A DNA stretch of 16,637 nucleotides from Candidatus Heimdallarchaeota archaeon (GCA_019057635.1 DXJL01000121.1:1-16637), one strand, 5' to 3'; numbered from the stretch's first letter, positions 369-15,129 are shown. Translations and numbers: made by a program. The notes: a model not told the origin generated them from the letters alone.

Positions 369-1136
369 TTAAAAAGACAGTTTAAGTCCTACGGGAGCGT
401 GATCAGATCCTAGTATTTCAGGTAAAATGAAGGCGTCTTTAACATTAGTTTTAAGATCTTCTGTAACCACAAAATAATCAATACGCCATCCAATATTTCT
501 TACTCTTGCATTTGAACGGTAAGTCCACCAAGAATAATGGTCTGGATCCTGAGTAAACATCCTCAATGTATCGATGTAACCGTGGTCTAATAATTCCGTA
601 AAGTATGCTCTCTCGGTGGGAGAAAAACCAGCATTCTTCTGATTAGTTTTAGGGTTTTTAAGATCGATTTCCTTATGAGCAACATTGAAATCACCACACA
701 AGACAATCGGTTTCTTTGTTTTCAACTTTTCCATATATGTCAATAGTGTTTGATTGAATTGCTGCTTATATTCTAAGCGTTTCAGTTCTCTTTGTGCATT
801 TGGGAAGTACAAATTGATTAGAAAGAAATTTTTAAATTCTAATTGTAAAAATCTCCCCTCTAAATCAAGGATCGAATGACCAGTCTTTGTAAGAGTACTA
901 AGTGGTTTATGCTTGGTTAAAGTTAAAACTCCACTATAACCTTTTTTTTCTGCGGAATTCCAGAATAATTGATAGTTCGGAAGATCAAATGACAAAGACA
1001 ATTGATCTGGTTGAGCCTTTGTCTCCTGTACACATAAAATATCGGGTTTTCGTTGTGCAACCCAGTTTATGAACACTCCCTTTGAAATACAGGCTCTAAT
1101 ACCATTAACGTTCCATGAAAGCAATTCTAATTCCAT
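369..1136 (-). CDS. xth: Exodeoxyribonuclease III / class II AP endonuclease (Xth/APE1 family)
   Basis: Motifs SWNVNGIRA, PDILCVQETK, KKGYSGV, EGR, YFPN, GDFNVAH, YSWW, WRIDY and SDHAPV are present. Start moved from the GTG at 1145 to the ATG at 1136 because the GTG lies inside an AGGTG Shine-Dalgarno (1143-1147). Confidence 0.96.
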   Translation of the reverse strand: MELELLSWNVNGIRACISKGVFINWVAQRKPDILCVQETKAQPDQLSLSFDLPNYQLFWNSAEKKGYSGVLTLTKHKPLSTLTKTGHSILDLEGRFLQLEFKNFFLINLYFPNAQRELKRLEYKQQFNQTLLTYMEKLKTKKPIVLCGDFNVAHKEIDLKNPKTNQKNAGFSPTERAYFTELLDHGYIDTLRMFTQDPDHYSWWTYRSNARVRNIGWRIDYFVVTEDLKTNVKDAFILPEILGSDHAPVGLKLSF

Positions 1137-1189
1137 TAGAAACACCTAAAGTTATCTATTCAGTTATGAAAGTTTTTGGGATAATGTTT

Positions 1190-5521: not shown

Positions 5522-7717
5522 TCATTCATATAAGAAGAGTTTGATATCATCTACGAGTTTATTTAACGCTCTTTTTTCGACTCTGGGGAGTAACATATCT
5601 TGAACATGTGGTTCGATCACATCATCGATACTGCGCGCCTCTGCAACTTCGTACTCATATTTTAGTTCCATTGGATCGATTACTAGTTCAAAGAGCTTCG
5701 CCACTTTACCGGGACGAGTCGCTCTCCCAACTCTTTGGATTTGTTCTCGCCGATTTTTTGTTCCAGAAACGATTATTATTGTATCTGCTGGGGCATCGAA
5801 TCCTTCATTAAGCATTTTTACGAGAATAAGGGTATTTATCTCCCTATGTCGAAATTTATCGAGAAGAATATTGAATTCTTTATCATTTAGAACCGTTTCT
5901 CCTGTTAATAATGTACTAGCGATTTTTCGCTCTTTTAGAAACTTGTGTATTGCCTTTGCGTGATTAATTCGACTTGTGAAGACAAGTGTCTGTGAAGTTA
6001 ATGGGGACTCCAGTAGTTTGTGTATGGCAAATAGCTTATACCGAGCTTCTCGTGATACTTTGCCGTGAGATGACTTTCCTTTTTGGGTGATAGTGGTTTT
6101 TTCTTCTGACGTTAAGGGTATGTAAATTCTTTCTGAGTAAATTGGAGCAATGAATCCCTCACGAGCTAATAATCCATAATTAATCTTGTGTATGATCGGC
6201 CCCATAGTAGCGACTACTAGACTTGAATGTAATGTCTTTTCGATGGTCGCACTGAGAGCCATTCGCCGAGGTATCTCTAGATCTACGGCTATGTGCCGAA
6301 ACGTTTCTGCCTGGATATGATGTGATTCATCGGCTATTAATAAGCCAAATTTATCTGTAAAAAATCCAATTGTATCTTTGACTAAAAGCTTATCACGGGA
6401 AACTTTTTCAAGTTCCTTCTGTTCTAATGCATGAAAATCTTGTAAGTATTGGGCAAGTAATTGAAATGTTGAGATTACGATCTGATATTGGCGAAATGCT
6501 TTCTTCTGGCCTGTAAAAATTCCTATTTCGGATGGTTCTATTCCTATAAATTGACCAATTTGACTAATCCATTGATCGACTAAGGCAAGATTAGGAACAA
6601 GTATCAGGGTCCGCTGTTGAACTTGTCTTATGGCATCAATTCCAATTATTGTCTTACCAGCACCAGTTGGTAACTGTATTGTCCCGAATTCCTGGTTTTC
6701 TACCCATTTCTCTATTCCAGCTTGTTGGTATGACCGCAATTCATAGTTGTGTTGCATTTCTGTCTTCCAAACTTTCTTATCAAGTTTTGGAGTGAATTGA
6801 GCGTATTGTAAGTCGAAAAGTGTATTCGTTTTGGATTCTTTGATGCTCTTTTCCACCATCCGCCAAAAATGATTTGCTCGGAATGCGGCCCAAAACGCCA
6901 CTTCTATCTCTCGTTCCCCTACTTGAGTAATACACGTCAAGTAGTCCGCATTCGGATCGTCTTCCGATCTTATCGCCATATACCGAGTAAAAATATCGAA
7001 TAATGTGTGAAACCAAGTATTAAAAGCTTTATTCCATTTAATCCTTAATTTATTCTCCACCGACTCTACAATAAGTGTATATTCTTGATGGCCTGTTGTT
7101 GAAAGCGATTGTAATTTTTCTTTCGCCCCTGGACTATATTTTATTGTTACTCCTGTTCTCTGCAAGAGCTGAATATCTTCCTGTACAAGATGTGGGAATT
7201 GTAGAATGAATTTTGTTGGTCTATGAGTCCGCTCATGTTCCCAATAGCTATTATGTTTTCGCCAATTGCGTTCCCAAATCCGGAATTGCTCTCCTACCCA
7301 CGAGAAATAAAAGAATTTTCTATCATATTCTTCCGACCCCTCCTCTTTTTTTAAATATTCAAAGTAATCTTCAACGTTCAGACTTCGTGACCGCTCTTTC
7401 TTGTAATGAGAACGTCGGATTGGTATCCAAGCGTTTATCTTGGTAAATGGGTACCAGGGGAAATCGACTAAGAAGCTCAAGTCTTCTTGAATTGTTATTA
7501 TGAATTCATTCTTCTTTGAACTTAAAAACGCTATCCAGGCTTCCTCTGTAACTGAAGCACCTTTCAGACGTGGACTTTGCTTTCCCCGTAATCCAAGATT
7601 GGGAGAAGAACAAACATGTGTTCTTATATTATGACGACAAAGAGGAGCAGAGCATTTACTACAACGGTAAATTTTCGCCCCGGCTTCCGCACATTCATTA
7701 CAAATTTCTAAGCTAAT
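5522..7717 (-). CDS. XPB/ResIII-like superfamily 2 (DExH) helicase with a long N-terminal region and an N-terminal Cys/His zinc finger; probable non-canonical start (ORF track start 7480)
   Basis: Motifs LRSYQ (Q motif), LPTGAGKT, LVP...LVDQW, DESHH, ALSAT, LNEGFD.P and QRVGR.TRP. The frame stays open upstream of 7480 to a TGA at 7729-7727 and encodes CNEC..CSKC....CRHNIRTHVC. The helicase call is firm; the start position is less certain. Confidence 0.8.
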   Translation of the reverse strand: MSLEICNECAEAGAKIYRCSKCSAPLCRHNIRTHVCSSPNLGLRGKQSPRLKGASVTEEAWIAFLSSKKNEFIITIQEDLSFLVDFPWYPFTKINAWIPIRRSHYKKERSRSLNVEDYFEYLKKEEGSEEYDRKFFYFSWVGEQFRIWERNWRKHNSYWEHERTHRPTKFILQFPHLVQEDIQLLQRTGVTIKYSPGAKEKLQSLSTTGHQEYTLIVESVENKLRIKWNKAFNTWFHTLFDIFTRYMAIRSEDDPNADYLTCITQVGEREIEVAFWAAFRANHFWRMVEKSIKESKTNTLFDLQYAQFTPKLDKKVWKTEMQHNYELRSYQQAGIEKWVENQEFGTIQLPTGAGKTIIGIDAIRQVQQRTLILVPNLALVDQWISQIGQFIGIEPSEIGIFTGQKKAFRQYQIVISTFQLLAQYLQDFHALEQKELEKVSRDKLLVKDTIGFFTDKFGLLIADESHHIQAETFRHIAVDLEIPRRMALSATIEKTLHSSLVVATMGPIIHKINYGLLAREGFIAPIYSERIYIPLTSEEKTTITQKGKSSHGKVSREARYKLFAIHKLLESPLTSQTLVFTSRINHAKAIHKFLKERKIASTLLTGETVLNDKEFNILLDKFRHREINTLILVKMLNEGFDAPADTIIIVSGTKNRREQIQRVGRATRPGKVAKLFELVIDPMELKYEYEVAEARSIDDVIEPHVQDMLLPRVEKRALNKLVDDIKLFLYE

Positions 7718-7980: not shown

Positions 7981-10197
7981 TTATTTTTTCGGAAATATAA
8001 GAACAAATTTAGTCCCTGATCCCTTTCCTTCACTATAAGCTTTTATTGATCCTCCATGTGAGTTCATAATTTCTCTAGAAAGATAAAGGCCAATTCCAGT
8101 ACCATGTGTAGAATATTCTGTCTCAATCGTGACGAACTGATCAAAAATAATCTCGAGATCTGTTGGCTCAATACCTGCCCCTTTATCTATAATATCGACC
8201 TCTAGGCTTTTCTCCTCATTTCTTATGTCGATCTGTATTTCCCTATTATCTTGGGGACTATTTTTAATTGCGTTATCAATCACATTATCAAAAACTTGTT
8301 GAATTCGATCACTGTCAAGGGAAATATTTTGGGGAATACCTTCGGCAAAATTAACAAACTTGAATTCAAATTGATTCTCCAATAAGTTTCGATAGGGGGT
8401 TAATATTTTGATCATACACTCTTTGAAATCGACATTTTGGAGATTAATTTCGAATAATCCCCTTTCAAGTTGAGTAATGGCTTGACTATCTGAGATTAAC
8501 CTTTCTAATCGTTTTAGGTTTTTAGTAATTATCGAAAATATATCTTCTTTCTGCGTAACTGTCATTGCATCCATTTTCTTTTGTAAAAACTCATTGTATC
8601 CGAAAAGTACGGTTAAGGGAGTTCTTAATTCATGATTGACCATTCTAATAAAATTATCTCGTTTCTTCTGCAGCTTGATTCTAATCTCTTCTGCTTTCTT
8701 CCTTTCTTCAACGTCTCTAAAGATGCCAATATGATAAGTCATATCTTCTAGGATTACTGGAGAAACATTAACGTCTGCATGAAAAACGGATCCATCTTTT
8801 TTCGTGAGGGGGATTTCTGAAGCGTAAGTTGAATTTTGTCTATCAATTACAGCTGCAGCTTCTTTAAAGTTTTTATAGTTCTGTGTAGGACGAATATCTG
8901 TTAAAAACAATTTTTGACCCTCATCTTTCGTATAGCCTAGCATATCACAAAAGGATTGATTCGCTAGGAATACTTTTCCATTTTCTGGATTAGCTAGTAT
9001 GATTCCATCAGTCACATTTTCGAAAATAGTTTTGAAACGAGTTTCTGAATCTCTTAATTCTTTCTCAGACATTTTAAGATCAGTGATATCAAGGACTGTT
9101 ACGGTTGCTCTAGCGGATTTACCTTTATCAATATCCCACTTTGCTCGTAATAAAGCCCAAAGTTTTTTCCCTGATTTTGTAATGATCTGATATTCGACTG
9201 TATCCTTCATTTCCTCATTAGCCATTATCTTTGCTAATCGGTCCAACCAAATGTCTTTACTTTCATCTGTTAACATTTCATATAAGTTTAAGGAACGAGC
9301 TTCTTCTTCTGTGACTTCAAATAGCTCCAATAATAGATCGTTTGCAAATAAAATATGAACATCTCCAGTCAGGAAATCCATTTCTATTTCATAAATTCCT
9401 GTGGGTGCTTTTTTAACAAGCTGTCGATATCGCTGTTCGCTTTCACGAAGGTCCATTTCTATTTTCTTCATATCTGATATGTCAAGCATTACGCCACGTA
9501 ATCCGACAGGCTTTTTATCACGCAGTATGGGACTCGAGTAAATGAGAACAGGTAACGTACTTCCATCTTTATGCAACGCGTTATACTCATGATCTGTGAA
9601 TAATTCTCCTTGCATCACTTTACCAATATTCTGTCGGATACGATTAAGATCTTCGGGAATGAATAATTGGGTGACGCTTATCCCAGCTGTTAGTTCATCT
9701 TGCGTATAACCGAATGTATTGAGACCCTTTTGATTTGCATATAGAATTTTTCCAGTAGTATCCAGTTCAAACACGGTTTGTGGTAAGAGCTCCGCTAATT
9801 CTTTGAAATCCTTTTCACTGTATCTTAATTGTGTATCAAGTGCTTCAGCATGAATAAATTGTCGATAAAAACCATAAACCCCTAATATCGCTCCTAATAA
9901 GAAGAAAATCATGTCTATATCATCAATAGGGTCAGTAAAAATATAACTGTTCAAATTAGGAGCGAACGCTGTGGAAAAATCTTGCAACACATCAAAAAAA
10001 ACAGGAATAGTTAATATCAGTATTCCAGCAAATGCCCATGGACCCGCTCCACGCTTTAAAGCTTGATTTCTATTCAGATTGAGGTAGATAACAACTACGA
10101 GGGTACAAAGTAGAATTAGAGTAGCGAATCCAAAGAAAAATTCAAAGTAATCAAAGAAATTTGATGCTAAGCTTGTTATCAGAGTAATTTGAACCAT
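7981..10197 (-). CDS. Membrane-anchored multi-PAS sensor histidine kinase
   Basis: Three N-terminal hydrophobic segments and three PAS/PAC repeats each introduced by SE..[FY] and closed by D[IV][STE]..K. H-box NHELRTPL, N-box QVFDNVIDNAIK, D.G.GI, IF.QF, GTGIGL and S.G.G.GT.F. Confidence 0.95.
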   Translation of the reverse strand: MVQITLITSLASNFFDYFEFFFGFATLILLCTLVVVIYLNLNRNQALKRGAGPWAFAGILILTIPVFFDVLQDFSTAFAPNLNSYIFTDPIDDIDMIFFLLGAILGVYGFYRQFIHAEALDTQLRYSEKDFKELAELLPQTVFELDTTGKILYANQKGLNTFGYTQDELTAGISVTQLFIPEDLNRIRQNIGKVMQGELFTDHEYNALHKDGSTLPVLIYSSPILRDKKPVGLRGVMLDISDMKKIEMDLRESEQRYRQLVKKAPTGIYEIEMDFLTGDVHILFANDLLLELFEVTEEEARSLNLYEMLTDESKDIWLDRLAKIMANEEMKDTVEYQIITKSGKKLWALLRAKWDIDKGKSARATVTVLDITDLKMSEKELRDSETRFKTIFENVTDGIILANPENGKVFLANQSFCDMLGYTKDEGQKLFLTDIRPTQNYKNFKEAAAVIDRQNSTYASEIPLTKKDGSVFHADVNVSPVILEDMTYHIGIFRDVEERKKAEEIRIKLQKKRDNFIRMVNHELRTPLTVLFGYNEFLQKKMDAMTVTQKEDIFSIITKNLKRLERLISDSQAITQLERGLFEINLQNVDFKECMIKILTPYRNLLENQFEFKFVNFAEGIPQNISLDSDRIQQVFDNVIDNAIKNSPQDNREIQIDIRNEEKSLEVDIIDKGAGIEPTDLEIIFDQFVTIETEYSTHGTGIGLYLSREIMNSHGGSIKAYSEGKGSGTKFVLIFPKK

Positions 10198-10334
10198 TTT
10201 TGAGCTGTTCCCTCAATTAGGAGTTAAGATTAACATTTACTACAGTTTTAGATTCGTATGTGAGGTCGACTACAAGTTAAGAGATATCTTTCTTCCTCAG
10301 TGTTACTATTTATTTACTTCGAATTACTTATTCT

Positions 10335-11312
10335 TCACCTTTCGTTCTCTGTTTGCAAAGTGGTACCACACGTTTCACAAAAACGATCCTCTTTCAAAAC
10401 CATTTCCCCACACTGAGAACAATATCGCACAAAATCATCAATTTGAACATCTGGAACTGTCATAAATTGATCTAGGGAAGATTGTGCTCCTTCACCCGCT
10501 CGTTTTCGAACAGTTGCCATGTTTACACTTTCTAGTCTCTTAAGCGGTTGTTTTAACATGATAGCTAATTGACGAGCGTTGGCAGGAGCAGACCCTGATG
10601 GATGATTATTGAAATAGGTATAGATCTCCTTAGTCTGGTCTAATAATGAATCAATTTTTTCCTTCCAGACAAGTAATTCCTTCCGAGAATACAAATATCG
10701 GTACCATAGTTTTAAGCCATGACCATGGAGTCGTATGTATGAAAAATCAGCTGTAACCGGTGTGATAGGGGGTAACAGTGGTTCATCAACGATGCAGAAA
10801 GCTACGTTGAATTTCGAAAGTAGATCAACGGTCTGGTCAAGATGCTTACACCAGCTCATCTCACGAAATTCAACAGCCAGTTTTAATTCCGAGGGCCAGT
10901 GTCGGAGAAACACTCCCAGCGCTCGGCGATTTTCATCTGAGAATTTTGGGGGTAGCTGTAACAGTGCAGGTCCAATTTTTCTACGTAGTCCGCTCGACAT
11001 GGTATCTAGAAACCGATCAAGATCCGATTGAAAATCTACGAGCTTTTTCTCATGCGTAATCACTTTAGGGATTTTAAATGCAAATAAAAAGTTATTTGGA
11101 ACATGTTTTTCCCATCTTTGAACTACTCCGAGTCGGGGAAAATGATAAAAGCTGGTGTTTATCTCTACAGTGGAAAAAACTTCACTGTACCAGGCAAGGC
11201 GTTGTTGTTCTGCCAGTATAGACGGATAAAAAGGAATTTCTGTTTTCTCGTTTTTCGCCTGCCAATCTGAATAGCCAAAACCCGAAGTTCCAATTAACAC
11301 TTTAGCTGTCAT
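10335..11312 (-). CDS. DUF72 (YecE-like) protein with a C-terminal PIP-like motif and a 4-Cys zinc ribbon
   Basis: DUF72 signatures IGTSGF.Y.DW, FYP, Y...F.TVEIN.SFY..P, F.F.FK.P..ITH, LLQLPP.F, AVEFR..SW, Y.RLHG, Y.YS..EL and YFNN....A..NA. The tail contains QSSLDQFM and CSQC-x10-CETC. Confidence 0.92.
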   Translation of the reverse strand: MTAKVLIGTSGFGYSDWQAKNEKTEIPFYPSILAEQQRLAWYSEVFSTVEINTSFYHFPRLGVVQRWEKHVPNNFLFAFKIPKVITHEKKLVDFQSDLDRFLDTMSSGLRRKIGPALLQLPPKFSDENRRALGVFLRHWPSELKLAVEFREMSWCKHLDQTVDLLSKFNVAFCIVDEPLLPPITPVTADFSYIRLHGHGLKLWYRYLYSRKELLVWKEKIDSLLDQTKEIYTYFNNHPSGSAPANARQLAIMLKQPLKRLESVNMATVRKRAGEGAQSSLDQFMTVPDVQIDDFVRYCSQCGEMVLKEDRFCETCGTTLQTENER

Positions 11313-11372
11313 TTACTTCGAACTCCGTGTCGCAAGACTCCATTGCCAACAAACTGTATCTTTCCCATTTAC

Positions 11373-11580
11373 CAATTTCTGATTTGCCTCTAGGATTTAT
11401 CACAGATTTCCGATTAAAAATATTTAGATGACGGACTAAATTCTAGAGAATGAATTGCTATTCTTATCCTTGCCTCTGATTTTGAATATGAAAAAGGGAT
11501 CCTGAAATTGTAAATGCAAGACACAAACCTAATTTAGTGGAAATTGAGATTTACTAAAAACACTCATTTTCTTCATTTTC
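11373..11580. promoter_or_regulatory. Cluster of five CAWTTTC motifs in the divergent DUF72 / RadA-like promoter
   Basis: CAATTTC at 11373-79 (+), 11504-10 (-) and 11540-46 (-); CATTTTC at 11565-71 (+) and 11574-80 (+). Includes the inverted pair GAAATTGAG-N14-CTCATTTTC (11540-11571). Confidence 0.45.
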
Positions 11581-11642
11581 ACTGACGTCTCTGACTGTAT
11601 CAGAGTAATTAGATCGGATCGAAGTGAACTATCTGGTTACAA

Positions 11643-12440
11643 ATGGGTACAGATGCGAGTTCATGGACTTCAGCTTGGGAATTACAGCAAGAAGAGCGGT
11701 ATAAATCAGGTCTTTTAGCTCTTGATGCGTTGATTCCAGAAGGGATGTTACCAGGTAGCTTGATCCTACTACAAGGCGACATTAACCGAAAATTATTGCG
11801 TCATTTAGTGACAAAGCTCTCCGTGGGTTTTCTGACAACTAATGAGCCTGCAGAGCTGGCATTTGTTGATGGAGCTAACTTATTTCCCTACTATGAAATA
11901 GCGACTGAAGCCCGAAGACATGGTTATGATCCGCTGGTCATTTTGGATCGTATTCAGCTATCACGAGCATTTAATTTTCATCAAATGACCGAAATAATTA
12001 CCAAAAGGCTTCCTGCTCTTCTTGAAAGGAAGAAACAGCTCAGGATAGTGTTTGTTCCTCAGATTTCGTCGCAATACCTTTCCACGGAAGCATTACAATA
12101 TTTAGAATATGCAAAGCTATCCGTAGCAGAAGGAGCACTATCTGAATTAACTCAAGCAGTTGGTACCCTAAAGAGCCTAGCCTTACAGCATAATTTACTG
12201 GTTATCATGACGGCCGCTAGTGCCACAGGATCAAAAACCAAGGGCTTGGGAGGGACTTATCTTACTCATTCCGCTTCCTCGGTTATAAGAATGACTACTT
12301 CAACACAAAGCTCTGCCAAAGAGTATGATATTCACTTTTCATTACAGAAAGATCCAGCTCGACCTGTCATTCAGCTGACCCACTCACATCGACAAAAAAA
12401 ACCTGCAAACAATCAAACGTTACTTAATCGTTATTGGTGA
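11643..12440 (+). CDS. Catalytically inactive RadA/Rad51-fold paralog (ImuA-like accessory) with a C-terminal PIP box
   Basis: RecA-core landmarks SG..ALD.L..G...GSL..L.G, FVD..N.F, LDRI..SRAFN..Q, LA..HNL.V..T and LGG.YL.H.AS..I. Walker A is degenerate (QGDINRK, no GKT) and the Walker B Asp is replaced (IVFVPQ). No HhH domain. Ends QTLLNRYW. Confidence 0.82.
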   Translation: MGTDASSWTSAWELQQEERYKSGLLALDALIPEGMLPGSLILLQGDINRKLLRHLVTKLSVGFLTTNEPAELAFVDGANLFPYYEIATEARRHGYDPLVILDRIQLSRAFNFHQMTEIITKRLPALLERKKQLRIVFVPQISSQYLSTEALQYLEYAKLSVAEGALSELTQAVGTLKSLALQHNLLVIMTAASATGSKTKGLGGTYLTHSASSVIRMTTSTQSSAKEYDIHFSLQKDPARPVIQLTHSHRQKKPANNQTLLNRYW

Positions 12441-12444
12441 TAAT

Positions 12445-12723
12445 ATGGGCCGAACATTACCTTCCTATCGAATGGTATTAGAACATGAGCGAGCACTGTG
12501 GATAAAACACTTTGCTAAACGTCTACGAGAACCGTACCGAACAAGCTTTGACCACCTTTGGGAGAAGGCGTTTCAGCTTGCTGATGCTTCTTCTGCAAAC
12601 ACCAGGCCAGTAGCCTTAGACAATATTCTGATGAGTATGGTAGTGGCCCAACAGACAGAAATTCAGCGTTTGCGTAAAGAAATTACTACCTTGCAACAGC
12701 AAGTGAATGACATAGGTAATTGA
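12445..12723 (+). CDS. Small alpha-helical PolB2-associated protein (arCOG07300-like) with a C-terminal coiled coil
   Basis: MGRTLPSYR......W...F...LR.......F..L pattern typical of the small gene found next to archaeal PolB2. Gaps to its neighbours are 4 nt and 10 nt. Heptad tail QQTEIQRLRKEITTLQQQV. Confidence 0.8.
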   Translation: MGRTLPSYRMVLEHERALWIKHFAKRLREPYRTSFDHLWEKAFQLADASSANTRPVALDNILMSMVVAQQTEIQRLRKEITTLQQQVNDIGN

Positions 12724-12733
12724 CCTGATTCTC

Positions 12734-14965
12734 ATGGTTTTCCTACGTGCTTGGCTTCATGATGTGGCAGCAACCGATTGGGGAGTAAACACCTGCTGGA
12801 TTACTCGGACAAGAGGAATCGAAGCTTTTTATCCGCTGACGGCAGAGTTTTTCCTAGCTAGAACAGATCAAGAAACACGAAATCGTGTACTAAGTCATCC
12901 AGAAGTAGAGTCAGTCGAAGAAGCTTCCAAGTATGTATCTATCCACGACTGGCAAGCCAGTCCAGTGTTACGTATTCGAGTTAACCCAACTAAGATACGT
13001 TCTACTTTCGAAGATTTACGGAAATATTGGGGCGAGTACCTATATAATGCCGATCTCAGCATTTATCAACAGTTTTGCTTTCAAACTGGGTTGTTTCCAT
13101 ATGTTTACGCTAGAATTGAAGTAACTAATGGTAGATTGCAAAAGAATTGGGAACTAATCGAGAATTATTTGCAGGCTGACTATCGTTCTGTGCCTTTCCG
13201 AACTCTCTGGATGCAACCATTCTTTGCAGAGCAGAATTTTTCACGCGGCCCGATAAAAGAAATACACCTCCGTCATTCGCTCAATAAGGAAGAAGAAGAA
13301 CCGATAATCTTTGCTGAAGAATCGGAAACAGAAACAATACGGGAGAGTATGATGTACCTAAACAAGGTTGATCCTGATATCCTTTTTACTTCAGGTGGGG
13401 ATACTTTTTTCCCAATCCTTGCCCAGCACGCGACGGATCAGGGGATTGGTTATCTTCATCCAGGAAGAGGGAAGCGTCGACTGTATAGTTATGTAAGAAA
13501 GCAAACACGACCTCGTGGTCATAGCTATATGTCGTACGGCCGAATTTTCTATTCGCAACACGGAAGCTACCTGGATGGTGGCCGACATCATTATGACGTA
13601 GGTAATTCCTTCATGTGGAAAGATGGCAATATCGATGGCATTCATGAGCTTGTCCGTTTAGGATGTTCTGATCCCCAACGTATTGCTCGAGGTACGATTG
13701 GGACTACATTGACTACGGTTCAAATGCGTACAGCTTATCGACGTAATATTCTGATTCCAGGACGAAAAGCTGATAGTGAAGATTTTCGGCCTGCGTGGTC
13801 AATGATGAGCGACGTGGGAGGGTTGGTGTTCTCCCCCCAAGTGGGATTTCATCGAAATCTCGTCGAATTGGATTTCCTGTCCATGTACCCATCAATAATG
13901 ACATACAAAAACGTAAGCCCTGATACCATTAATTGTGCGTGTTGTAAGAATGAACAACGACAACCTGTACCAGAAACAGACCATTATATTTGTACACGAC
14001 GCCCAGGCCTAGTCAGTCTAGCACTTAAGAATATTCTTGAACGACGCGCGTATTTTAAAAGTAAACGATCCGAAGAATGTTATGACAGACGTCAGAAAGT
14101 CCTTAAATGGTTACTTGTTTGTTCATTCGGATATCAAGGGTATAGAAATGCTCGATTTGGACGAATTGAAGCACATGAAGCTATATCGGCATATGGAAGA
14201 GAGGCGTTAACCCGTGCGAATCAAATTGCGACGGAGTATGGTCTTCAAGTGGTTGCAGGCATAGTTGATTCGATTTGGCTAAAAAATCCTGATGACACAC
14301 CAATTGAACAATCACTGATCGACGAAATCTGTCAACGAATAGAAGCTGAGGTAAAACTACCCCTTGAACACGCCGCCAACTATCACTGGATCGTGTTTCT
14401 TCCACGTCGTCATGAACCAACAATTGGTGTTCTCAATAGATATTATGGTCTAAAAACTGATGACTCCTATAAGATTCGTGGAATTGAGATCCGGCAATCT
14501 AGTAGTCCCTTATTTGTCAAAAAGCTTCAACGACAGCTCTTGAAGATTCTGTCTGCTGCACGCACTCATGAGCAATTTGAGGAATGTGCACAAAAAGCAA
14601 AGCGAGTGATGAGAAAATACTTAGCTGATCTAAAATCAGGTAATATTCCACTGAGTGATCTATTAGTGACCATTCGTCCTTCACGAGGCCCAGATGAATA
14701 TGTTAGCAATACACGTCAGGCCATTGCTGCCCGTCAACTGGCGGCCGCGGGAGTGAAGGTTGAAGCAGGTGTCAAGCTTAGCTATTTAATTCTCGATGCT
14801 TACGCGTCTGACCCTTCCAAACGTGTTAAAGTGACTCAACTTTTAACTGGTAAAGAGCAGTATGACTATCAGGAATATCGTAAACTGTGTATTCGTGCCT
14901 ATGAAGGCTTGATTCCTCCTGAAATGGAACCAAAACGACAAACAATTGAGGAATACCTTTCTTGA
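12734..14965 (+). CDS. polB2: Family B DNA polymerase of the PolB2/Dpo2 group (proofreading-deficient, damage-tolerance type)
   Basis: Motif A ELDFLSMYPSIM..N.SPDT; motif B RQ.VLKWLLVCSFGY.GY.NARFG.IE.HE.I; motif C altered from YGDTDS to GIVDSIW; K.RGIE.R. No recognisable ExoI D.E motif; only a DPDIL..GGD.F remnant. Confidence 0.93.
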   Translation: MVFLRAWLHDVAATDWGVNTCWITRTRGIEAFYPLTAEFFLARTDQETRNRVLSHPEVESVEEASKYVSIHDWQASPVLRIRVNPTKIRSTFEDLRKYWGEYLYNADLSIYQQFCFQTGLFPYVYARIEVTNGRLQKNWELIENYLQADYRSVPFRTLWMQPFFAEQNFSRGPIKEIHLRHSLNKEEEEPIIFAEESETETIRESMMYLNKVDPDILFTSGGDTFFPILAQHATDQGIGYLHPGRGKRRLYSYVRKQTRPRGHSYMSYGRIFYSQHGSYLDGGRHHYDVGNSFMWKDGNIDGIHELVRLGCSDPQRIARGTIGTTLTTVQMRTAYRRNILIPGRKADSEDFRPAWSMMSDVGGLVFSPQVGFHRNLVELDFLSMYPSIMTYKNVSPDTINCACCKNEQRQPVPETDHYICTRRPGLVSLALKNILERRAYFKSKRSEECYDRRQKVLKWLLVCSFGYQGYRNARFGRIEAHEAISAYGREALTRANQIATEYGLQVVAGIVDSIWLKNPDDTPIEQSLIDEICQRIEAEVKLPLEHAANYHWIVFLPRRHEPTIGVLNRYYGLKTDDSYKIRGIEIRQSSSPLFVKKLQRQLLKILSAARTHEQFEECAQKAKRVMRKYLADLKSGNIPLSDLLVTIRPSRGPDEYVSNTRQAIAARQLAAAGVKVEAGVKLSYLILDAYASDPSKRVKVTQLLTGKEQYDYQEYRKLCIRAYEGLIPPEMEPKRQTIEEYLS

Positions 14966-15129
14966 TAGAATTTCTTTAGAAAATATCTCGTATTCTGAAG
15001 GATATATCTTACTGTCCATGAATCAGAACAATCATTTTTTCCCTGTTCGAAAGTCTATTATAATGAATAGGAATGTAAACTAAGGGAAGTAGATTATTTC
15101 TGGTTTTATGCTAGTTTAAGCTGATTTAA

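Follow-up and report, generated by a model that had tools for sequence, protein, structure and literature searches.

A PolB2 mutasome operon of a Heimdall-group Asgard archaeon and its loosely linked DUF72 neighbor with a clamp-binding-type motif

We analyzed a stretch of 16,637 nucleotides assigned to a Candidatus Heimdallarchaeota archaeon (GCA_019057635.1 DXJL01000121.1:1-16637; the window), and more precisely its positions 10335-14965. This locus encodes an inactivated RadA/Rad51 paralogue (iRadA), a small protein of the arCOG07300 type (PPB2), a B-family DNA polymerase (PolB2) and, on the opposite strand, a DUF72 protein with a C-terminal zinc ribbon (DUF72-ZnR). Three of the four proteins carry motifs resembling the PCNA-interacting protein (PIP) box, the docking peptide for the sliding clamp. 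The host is a Heimdall-group Asgard archaeon, and the closest DUF72 homologues have source names in Hodarchaeales, Candidatus Hodarchaeum and Promethearchaeota. The features of the locus, given as open reading frames (ORFs), domains and motifs, are as follows.

10335-11312, minus strand: DUF72-ZnR gene, ORF of 325 aa, Pfam DUF72 and Zn_Ribbon_1
10356-10424, minus strand: C-terminal zinc ribbon of DUF72-ZnR (residues 297-319), CxxC-x10-CxxC, Pfam Zn_Ribbon_1 at 4.7e-06
10461-10484, minus strand: PIP-like box QSSLDQFM in the linker of DUF72-ZnR (residues 277-284), motif conserved in orthologues
10563-11228, minus strand: DUF72 TIM-barrel domain of YecE/TM1631 type (residues 29-250), Pfam match
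11313-11642, no strand: divergent intergenic region, 330 nt between DUF72-ZnR and iRadA
11564-11601, plus strand: conserved element upstream of iRadA, a tandem TCATTTTC (11564-11580) and then CTCTGACTGTATC (11589-11601), from the genus comparison
11643-12440, plus strand: iRadA gene, ORF of 265 aa, Pfam Rad51
12414-12437, plus strand: C-terminal PIP box of iRadA, QTLLNRYW (residues 258-265), conserved in genus orthologues
12445-12723, plus strand: PPB2 gene, ORF of 92 aa, N terminus MGRTLPSYR
12734-14965, plus strand: PolB2 gene, ORF of 743 aa, Pfam DNA_pol_B
14936-14959, plus strand: PIP-like tail of PolB2, RQTIEEYL, without a leading Q (the protein ends RQTIEEYLS), core conserved in the genus

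The proteins of the locus

A first-pass annotation of this DNA had described a tight three-gene operon, with gaps of 4 and 10 nt and a middle gene of 92 aa, facing a DUF72 gene head-to-head across 330 nt. The ORF coordinates confirm this layout: the spacers are 330 nt between DUF72-ZnR and iRadA, 4 nt between iRadA and PPB2, and 10 nt between PPB2 and PolB2. NCBIfam agrees with the Pfam assignments for the four ORFs, and the co-oriented series iRadA-PPB2-PolB2 is also found at 12 other loci of the genus.

The same annotation regarded the RadA paralogue as ATPase-dead and the polymerase as lacking proofreading, and comparison with solved structures supports both statements. The iRadA protein matches Pfam Rad51 (E=2.3e-05), and the alignment of the 13 genus sequences matches the RadA structure 1pzn (E=2.1e-10). 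In this alignment the Walker A motif is replaced, with QGDxxRxxL at the position of GEFGSGKT in RadA, and so is Walker B, with IVxVPQ at the position of LLIVDS. These substitutions support a disrupted ATPase site. PolB2 matches Pfam DNA_pol_B at E=1.5e-27, and its exonuclease domain stays under the cut-off of its family (E=0.089). When aligned to the Thermococcus polymerase 5vu5, motif A is retained (LDFLSMYPS), but motif C reads GIVD in place of SDTD, so that the first Asp of the DxD is gone. The exonuclease region aligns weakly (E=15), the NxxxFD of Exo II is replaced, and neither Exo I nor Exo II can be recognized. This supports a polymerase without proofreading and with an altered active site. 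The Pfam and NCBIfam scans found no Y-family or DnaE domain in the locus, and the polymerase is of the B family.

Two observations concern PolB2 relatives. In four of those in the genus, the motif B region (query position 465) is interrupted by an insert of about 530 aa; the one that was scanned (L045:4268-8095) is an intein with a LAGLIDADG domain (Intein_splicing 2.7e-12, LAGLIDADG_3 3e-17). Separately, a 4.2-kb contig binned to another family of the phylum (L007, G101:C80) encodes a PolB2 that is 66% identical to the one in the window, which may reflect mis-binning or recent transfer.

For PPB2, Pfam gives nothing credible. Its N terminus, MGRTLPSYR, corresponds to the "MGRT" arm with Arg3 and Arg9 described for PPB2 by Timinskas, Timinskas & Venclovas 2025 (section 3.3.1), and homologues with N termini of the GRTVPSFR type adjoin PolB2 in 22 of 30 other Asgard loci. 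The three-gene core was presented in the first-pass annotation as already known, and rightly so. Makarova et al. 2014 linked PolB2, arCOG07300 and an inactivated RadA in one predicted operon, and Timinskas 2025 modelled the products as a PolB2:iRadA:PPB2(3) heteropentamer. The operon thus adds one more case to a system already in the literature, the PolB2/PPB2/iRadA mutasome.

The DUF72-ZnR protein clearly belongs to its family: it matches Pfam DUF72 (PF01904) over residues 29-250 at E=1.6e-65, with 221.6 bits for a cut-off of 25.3, and the profile of its 34 orthologues matches TM1631 (1vpq) at 5e-39. A control search also matched DUF72 in Sulfolobus acidocaldarius. We defined a polar pocket as the polar residues that are at least 85% conserved over 51 diverse DUF72 sequences. 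All of these residues (E50, K80, H87, Q119, E148, R150, R194, H196 and N236) are kept in DUF72-ZnR, and because of this the protein looks catalytically competent. The kind of chemistry is a more delicate matter. Konc et al. 2013 proposed on computational grounds an Endo IV-like DNA-binding site in TM1631, and Timinskas 2025 pointed to a TIM-barrel likeness between DUF72 and UV-damage endonuclease (UVDE). In our profile search of the PDB with the DUF72-ZnR orthologues, only DUF72 entries were retrieved and no Endo IV or UVDE (E up to 0.01).

The zinc ribbon has four cysteines (C298, C301, C312 and C315) that are invariant in 34 sequences. Coverage falls sharply beyond the 33 nearest homologues, and only 1 of the best 150 representatives at 50% identity spans the whole profile, which makes the succession of DUF72 barrel, PIP-like box and zinc ribbon a lineage-specific architecture. 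We considered reading the ribbon as a finger of the NZF/UBZ type and abandoned the idea: Pfam lists only generic zinc-ribbon families for it and gives no support for a ubiquitin-binding finger.

Clamp-binding motifs in the operon and in the DUF72 family

The earlier reading that the locus is wired to the clamp remains plausible. The PCNA of the host was identified in the genome and aligned. The three motifs concerned, QTLLNRYW in iRadA, RQTIEEYLS in PolB2 and QSSLDQFM in DUF72-ZnR, are conserved in relatives and could all be docking peptides. In iRadA, the terminal hydrophobic PIP core is present in 13/13 genus orthologues, nine of which also have the leading Q. In PolB2, a core of the form [LIMV]xx[FYW]Φ (Φ, hydrophobic), devoid of the Q, ends at most 10 residues from the C terminus in the 12 genus proteins (12/12). 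A relaxed core of this kind lies within the last 8 residues of 199 of 1751 background ORFs of at least 200 aa (about 11%), and for this reason the core of the PolB2 tail alone is weak evidence. Among 17 other Asgard loci where both genes were found, 12 have the core at the end of both proteins, 3 have it only in iRadA and 2 lack it in both. Hence, both iRadA and PolB2 usually end in PIP-like tails in the sampled Asgard lineages, which refines the published picture of a "shuttling motif" for the archaea closest to eukaryotes.

The motif of DUF72-ZnR lies about 17 residues past the end of the barrel (this end being inferred from the TM1631 alignment) and before the zinc ribbon. The pattern [QR]x[ST]L[ED]x[FY][LIMFW] is found in 34/34 orthologues (at least 56% identity): the L and the aromatic F or Y are present in all 34, and the first position is Q in 28 and R in 6. 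This box is not an isolated case. A second DUF72 protein of the genome, of 279 aa and encoded on another contig, ends in QMTLQEFFS. A strict PIP motif falls within the last 25 residues of 15 ORFs of the genome, and it forms the extreme C terminus in five of them: FEN1, a PolB with an exonuclease domain, a Y-family polymerase, iRadA and this second DUF72.

The trend extends over the family. We picked by hand 20 further DUF72 copies of the short type, from 20 genomes spread over five families of the Heimdall class. The motif Q..[LIMV]..[FYW] falls within the last 8 residues in 15 of them and the hydrophobic core in 17, compared with 14 and 199, respectively, of the 1751 background ORFs. Across 70 short homologues from outside Hodarchaeales, the last 25 residues contain the strict motif in 8 cases and the relaxed one in 53 (background, 15 and 341 of 1751). 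Finally, 149 DUF72 representatives sharing at most 50% identity include 14 that end with a PIP motif and 9 that end with Qxx[LM]F, which resembles β-clamp-binding peptides (background, 13 and 5 of 1751). The few source names available place the PIP-like tails in Helarchaeota, Methanofastidiosia, Bathyarchaeia and Thaumarchaeota. The nine Qxx[LM]F cases (P0178, P0214, P0225, P0233, P0240, P0241, P0248, P0255 and P0273) include one with a source name, a DUF72 of an Armatimonadota bacterium with the tail QPRLFE. Bathyarchaeia copies linked to PolB2 end in QVGLTSFFE, QSNLGSFLS and QMHLGSFFS.

Terminal PIP motifs are thus widespread in archaeal DUF72 proteins, and the clamp-docking motif is not special to the copy linked to PolB2. 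On a tree of 108 DUF72 sequences (quick maximum likelihood, midpoint root, with every sixth representative taken beyond P0170 and a minimum length of 230 aa), the ZnR clade (support 97) is placed among PIP-tailed sequences, the best reading of which is that a PIP-tailed DUF72 acquired a zinc ribbon. Our full-text literature searches found no paper describing DUF72 as a client of the sliding clamp. What appears new is that tails of the clamp-binding type may be a general feature of DUF72, together with the conserved PIP-like box of DUF72-ZnR, [QR]x[ST]Lxx[FY]Φ.

We also came across other variants of the family. At four Bathyarchaeia loci (L118, L133, L138 and L152) a second, divergent DUF72-like gene of about 306-321 aa adjoins the PIP-tailed DUF72 beside the PolB2 operon; the one that was scanned, in L152, matches Pfam DUF72 at 7e-27. 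In a subclass of about 390 aa (P0040, P0134 and L133:4293-5471), the PIP tail is missing and the C terminus is prolonged by some 130 aa that include a CKH-containing motif. No Pfam family is assigned to this extension; a SWIM finger at its end was considered and dropped, there being no such Pfam match at E up to 0.01.

Linkage and transcription of the DUF72 gene

How tightly is DUF72 tied to PolB2? We sampled 22 genomes of the genus, including this one, calling PolB2 at E up to 1e-40 and the long DUF72 type at E up to 1e-60. Each gene is present in 18/22 genomes and both are present in 17, so that ZnR-type DUF72 occurs in 17 of the 18 genomes with PolB2 and in 1 of the 4 without it. One of the genus genomes, G058, is uninformative in this respect: it has a PCNA 99% identical to that of this genome and lacks PolB2 and DUF72-ZnR, but nothing in it matches the 16.6-kb window above about 74% identity, i.e., none of the window DNA is present. 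In 12 of the 17 genomes with both genes, a single contig carries the two at a distance of 1.5 to 11 kb, DUF72 lying upstream of iRadA, on its divergent side. The other five comprise a closed genome where they are 736 kb apart, one genome that has them on two long contigs, and three that are too fragmented to tell. Of the 11 linked genus loci read, only two, one of them the window, have the genes immediately head-to-head. In the remaining ones, 1 to 5 unrelated genes stand between DUF72 and iRadA, encoding a GH38 mannosidase, an Arf-type GTPase, a TrmB-like regulator, Ras-like proteins, secreted proteins and proteins without a family.

The linkage fades rapidly outside the genus. In the 14 other genomes of the class with PolB2, the contig of this gene never carries DUF72; these are mostly fragmented assemblies, and two of them lack any DUF72. 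We then drew one PolB2 locus per genus for 30 other Asgard genera, among the 150 matches listed (20 loci with the full ±9 kb and ten cut by contig ends), and found DUF72 in one of these 30 loci, at 7.5 kb. The sensitivity of this survey is adequate, since the search picked up the distant second DUF72 paralogue of the genome at 1.3e-20. At a broader scale, we searched for DUF72 with a hidden Markov model of our own (E below 1e-5) within 10 kb of 80 PolB2 loci from species-representative genomes of Bathyarchaeia, Asgard, Hadarchaeota, Nitrososphaerota, Thermoplasmata, Ignavibacteria, Bacteroidota, Nitrospirota, Kryptoniota, Chlorobiaceae and Armatimonadota. It is present at 16 of the 80 loci, and at 11 of the 36 with full flanks. 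For a genome of about 3 Mb with one or two DUF72 copies, we roughly estimate that chance would give 1-2%. The arrangements vary, with DUF72 lying upstream and divergent, upstream on the same strand, or downstream and convergent at 8-14 nt. On the tree, the linked copies need five label changes, at least two of which are forced by well-supported branches; since these copies are on separate branches, the association arose or was kept repeatedly. No fusion of DUF72 with an operon protein was seen in any of the loci read. An independent report goes in the same direction: genes for SRAP and DUF72 are described in Timinskas 2025 as "enriched to some degree" near polB2 in archaea and bacteria. We conclude that the association between DUF72 and PolB2 is real and recurrent but loose, and that in Asgard it is essentially a feature of this genus. 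A survey of PolB2 neighborhoods, as the first-pass annotation had proposed, thus finds the linkage within the genus and across prokaryotes, but it does not make DUF72 a regular fourth component in Asgard, given its absence from the PolB2 contigs of the 14 other genomes of the class and its near absence from the loci of the other genera.

The annotation had further suggested that DUF72 is co-regulated with the operon from the shared 330-nt region. The comparison of the genus points elsewhere. The motif TC[AT]TTTTC is found on the coding strand at most 250 nt upstream of iRadA in 13/13 genus loci, and upstream of DUF72-ZnR in 0/13. This conservation suggests a regulatory function for the element upstream of iRadA. 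With no sign of a cis element common to the two genes, and with only 2 of the 11 linked loci head-to-head, DUF72-ZnR is read as separately transcribed, and the idea of a shared promoter is not supported. The core of the element fits ANTTTC, the damage-response element of Sulfolobus that is bound by Orc1-2 and controls dpo2 among other genes (Sun et al. 2018), although a hexamer with one free position is weak evidence.

The tandem TCATTTTC has two occurrences in the whole 3.19-Mb genome, and the other one (G000 contig C79, around 4299, minus strand) precedes an ORF of 87 aa. Upstream of multi-copy ORFs that resemble transposases on visual inspection, and of one TFB-like gene, there is a single TCATTTTC followed by a TCTCTC tail and a TATA-like box. 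We considered the tandem as the mark of a damage regulon and set this aside, as the genome-wide copies established no regulon. In many loci (L055-L071) of the largest family of the phylum, iRadA is preceded at about 35-45 nt by another conserved box, AGAAAATTGTCGG.

The rest of the window encodes an ExoIII-family nuclease (369-1145, minus strand), two CoA-transferase subunits, a transporter of the major facilitator superfamily (MFS), an Lrp/AsnC regulator, a ferritin, an XPB/Rad25-like helicase of superfamily 2 (5522-7480, minus strand) and a PAS histidine kinase; the nuclease and the helicase thus share this 16-kb window with DUF72 and PolB2. Around positions 10000-15000 of the window, the G+C content is 0.40-0.43 over DUF72-ZnR and the operon and 0.33-0.36 in the flanks. 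This difference could result from acquisition of these genes as a block or from mere gene-specific composition.

Interpretation and comparison with known systems

The explanation that we favor, and regard as reasonably probable, is that the locus combines the known PolB2 mutasome with a separately transcribed DUF72-ZnR that would be a PCNA client, functionally associated with the mutasome and not its stoichiometric fourth subunit. DUF72 is seen as an associated, separately transcribed partner because the linkage is loose, the head-to-head arrangement is rare and the promoter element is consistently on the iRadA side. The region 11643-14965 would then encode the mutasome, with PolB2 as the catalytic subunit, the inactivated RadA, and PPB2, which is a trimer in the published model. 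This complex may act in damage tolerance as an "extender" polymerase, and it could dock on PCNA via the C-terminal PIP box of iRadA and probably also via the weaker PIP-like tail of PolB2. DUF72-ZnR, as a lineage-specific paralogue with an intact TIM barrel, a PIP linker and an added zinc ribbon, would most likely be a metal-dependent nuclease or phosphodiesterase with damaged or blocked DNA as its substrate. The clamp-loaded primer-template at which it acts could be the very one that PolB2 extends afterwards. The gene content, the states of the motifs, the conservation of the PIP-like motifs, the recurrent linkage of DUF72 and PolB2 in unrelated lineages and the wide spread of terminal clamp motifs in DUF72 are observed here, and PCNA binding, nuclease chemistry, a joint role with PolB2 and damage induction are predictions from sequence. 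The earlier interpretation is thus partly supported: it is right on the core and on the clamp motifs, but it overstates DUF72 as a co-regulated fourth component.

Several results weigh against the explanation that we favor. The closed genome of the genus has the two genes 736 kb apart, and DUF72 is missing from the PolB2 contigs of the 14 other genomes of the class and from all but one of the 30 loci of other Asgard genera. Synteny within a genus can be mere shared descent, and the co-absences involve incomplete assemblies. The motif of DUF72-ZnR is internal, followed by the zinc ribbon and not terminal. Furthermore, the literature searched contains no enzymology of DUF72, only computational proposals, and the idea of a nuclease rests on the computational papers on TM1631.

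In one alternative, the mutasome wired to the clamp would have four components, DUF72-ZnR being a genuine subunit of it and co-regulated with the operon from the 330-nt promoter between them. The genes are indeed head-to-head in the window, they co-occur in the genus, and three PIP-like motifs would fit the three sites of the PCNA trimer. We nevertheless find this very improbable: adjacency is direct in 2 of the 11 linked genus loci read and other genes intervene elsewhere, the iRadA promoter element is never found upstream of DUF72-ZnR (0/13), the genes are unlinked in the closed genome and in nearly all other Asgard loci, and no fusion between DUF72 and an operon protein was seen in the loci read. 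In another alternative, DUF72 would be a general housekeeping DNA enzyme bound to PCNA, without any special relation to PolB2, and its position would be inherited gene order. Plain synteny predicts that the upstream histidine-kinase neighbor should be kept with DUF72, as it is in several members of the genus; the linkage in Asgard is limited to one genus, and the unlinked second paralogue and most Asgard DUF72 copies also bear PIP motifs. This account is unlikely, though the least so of the alternatives, because it does not explain why 16 of the 80 loci are linked when chance would give 1-2%, in phyla as distant as Bathyarchaeia, Ignavibacteria and Armatimonadota and in differing arrangements, why the linked copies are on separate branches of the tree, or why Timinskas 2025 independently reports the enrichment.

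A basic stretch before the motif is typical of PIP contexts. This matters for another objection, which is that QxSLxxF in DUF72-ZnR could be a structural element of the module made by the linker and the zinc ribbon, or a site for another partner, and not a PCNA-binding peptide. The motif is internal and the zinc ribbon is a lineage-specific addition (1 of the best 150 representatives at 50% identity), as this objection would have it. However, sister DUF72 lineages have the same motif as a free C-terminal tail, hence the ZnR form looks like a PIP-tailed DUF72 with an appended domain, and the motif is preceded by the basic stretch VRKRAG. We therefore give this objection little credit.

The preferred explanation, that of an associated clamp client, can be extended to a bolder and distinctly speculative one, which we think improbable as a whole. 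DUF72/YecE proteins might be widespread, unrecognized enzymes that process DNA ends or lesions while bound to the sliding clamp, by PIP motifs in archaea and by QxxLF in some bacteria, and they might provide in trans the nuclease partner of the exonuclease-less PolB2 mutasome. In such a scheme, iRadA, PolB2 and DUF72 would each take one site on the PCNA trimer, DUF72 would clean or incise the damaged terminus and PolB2 would then extend it. The zinc ribbon in Hodarchaeales could be a second contact with DNA or with a modified clamp, which recalls the PIP-plus-zinc-finger modules of eukaryotic translesion synthesis (TLS) factors. 

DUF72/YecE is a large orphan family, with 15392 proteins in the representative library at E up to 0.001 and solved structures, and the conserved clamp-docking tail together with the recurrent linkage to a translesion polymerase turns its "unknown function" into concrete, testable hypotheses.

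The known system closest to this locus is the PolB2-PPB2-iRadA mutasome of Timinskas 2025, with which it shares the gene order, the lost first Asp, the degenerate exonuclease, the MGRT arm, the lost Walker A and B motifs and, here too, a PCNA motif at the C terminus of iRadA. In that study, PCNA-binding motifs are found for the most part in iRadA, at times in PolB2 and "only infrequently" in both, whereas PIP-like cores end both proteins here and at 12/17 other Asgard loci; their profile search is stricter than the regular expression that we used, and the word "Asgard" is absent from their main text. The first-pass annotation had held that a clamp-wired version with DUF72 was not described, and this claim largely fails, because Timinskas 2025 already reports the heteropentamer, the PCNA motifs of iRadA and PolB2 and the enrichment of DUF72 near polB2. 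The tandem TCATTTTC only resembles the Sulfolobus ANTTTC damage element.

Dpo2 of Sulfolobus islandicus is of the same PolB2 family, with the same kind of active-site substitution as here, and it is said, in work attributed to Feng et al. 2020 and to a 2022 mBio paper, to be a damage-induced extender in TLS. With the PCNA clients FEN1, PolB and Y-family polymerase, the iRadA protein and the second DUF72 share the same class of motif and its terminal position in this genome. DUF72-ZnR has clear sequence membership in the DUF72/YecE/TM1631 family (PDB 1vpq, 1vpy and 1ztv) and keeps its conserved polar pocket, but the solved bacterial proteins lack the PIP box in the linker and the C-terminal zinc ribbon. 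The likeness of DUF72 to Endo IV and UVDE is a prediction taken from papers.

Finally, the first-pass annotation had seen in the locus a functional analogue of ImuABC. Bacterial ImuA-ImuB-DnaE2 unites an error-prone polymerase, a partner of the RecA family and tethering to the clamp. The functional logic is similar here, as it is for Pol V (UmuD'2C-RecA), with which Timinskas 2025 compared the mutasome. This part of the analogy stands, but components of the DnaE2/ImuB type are not found: those systems use polymerases of the C or Y families, unrelated to the B-family enzyme of this locus, which shares their logic without being one of them.

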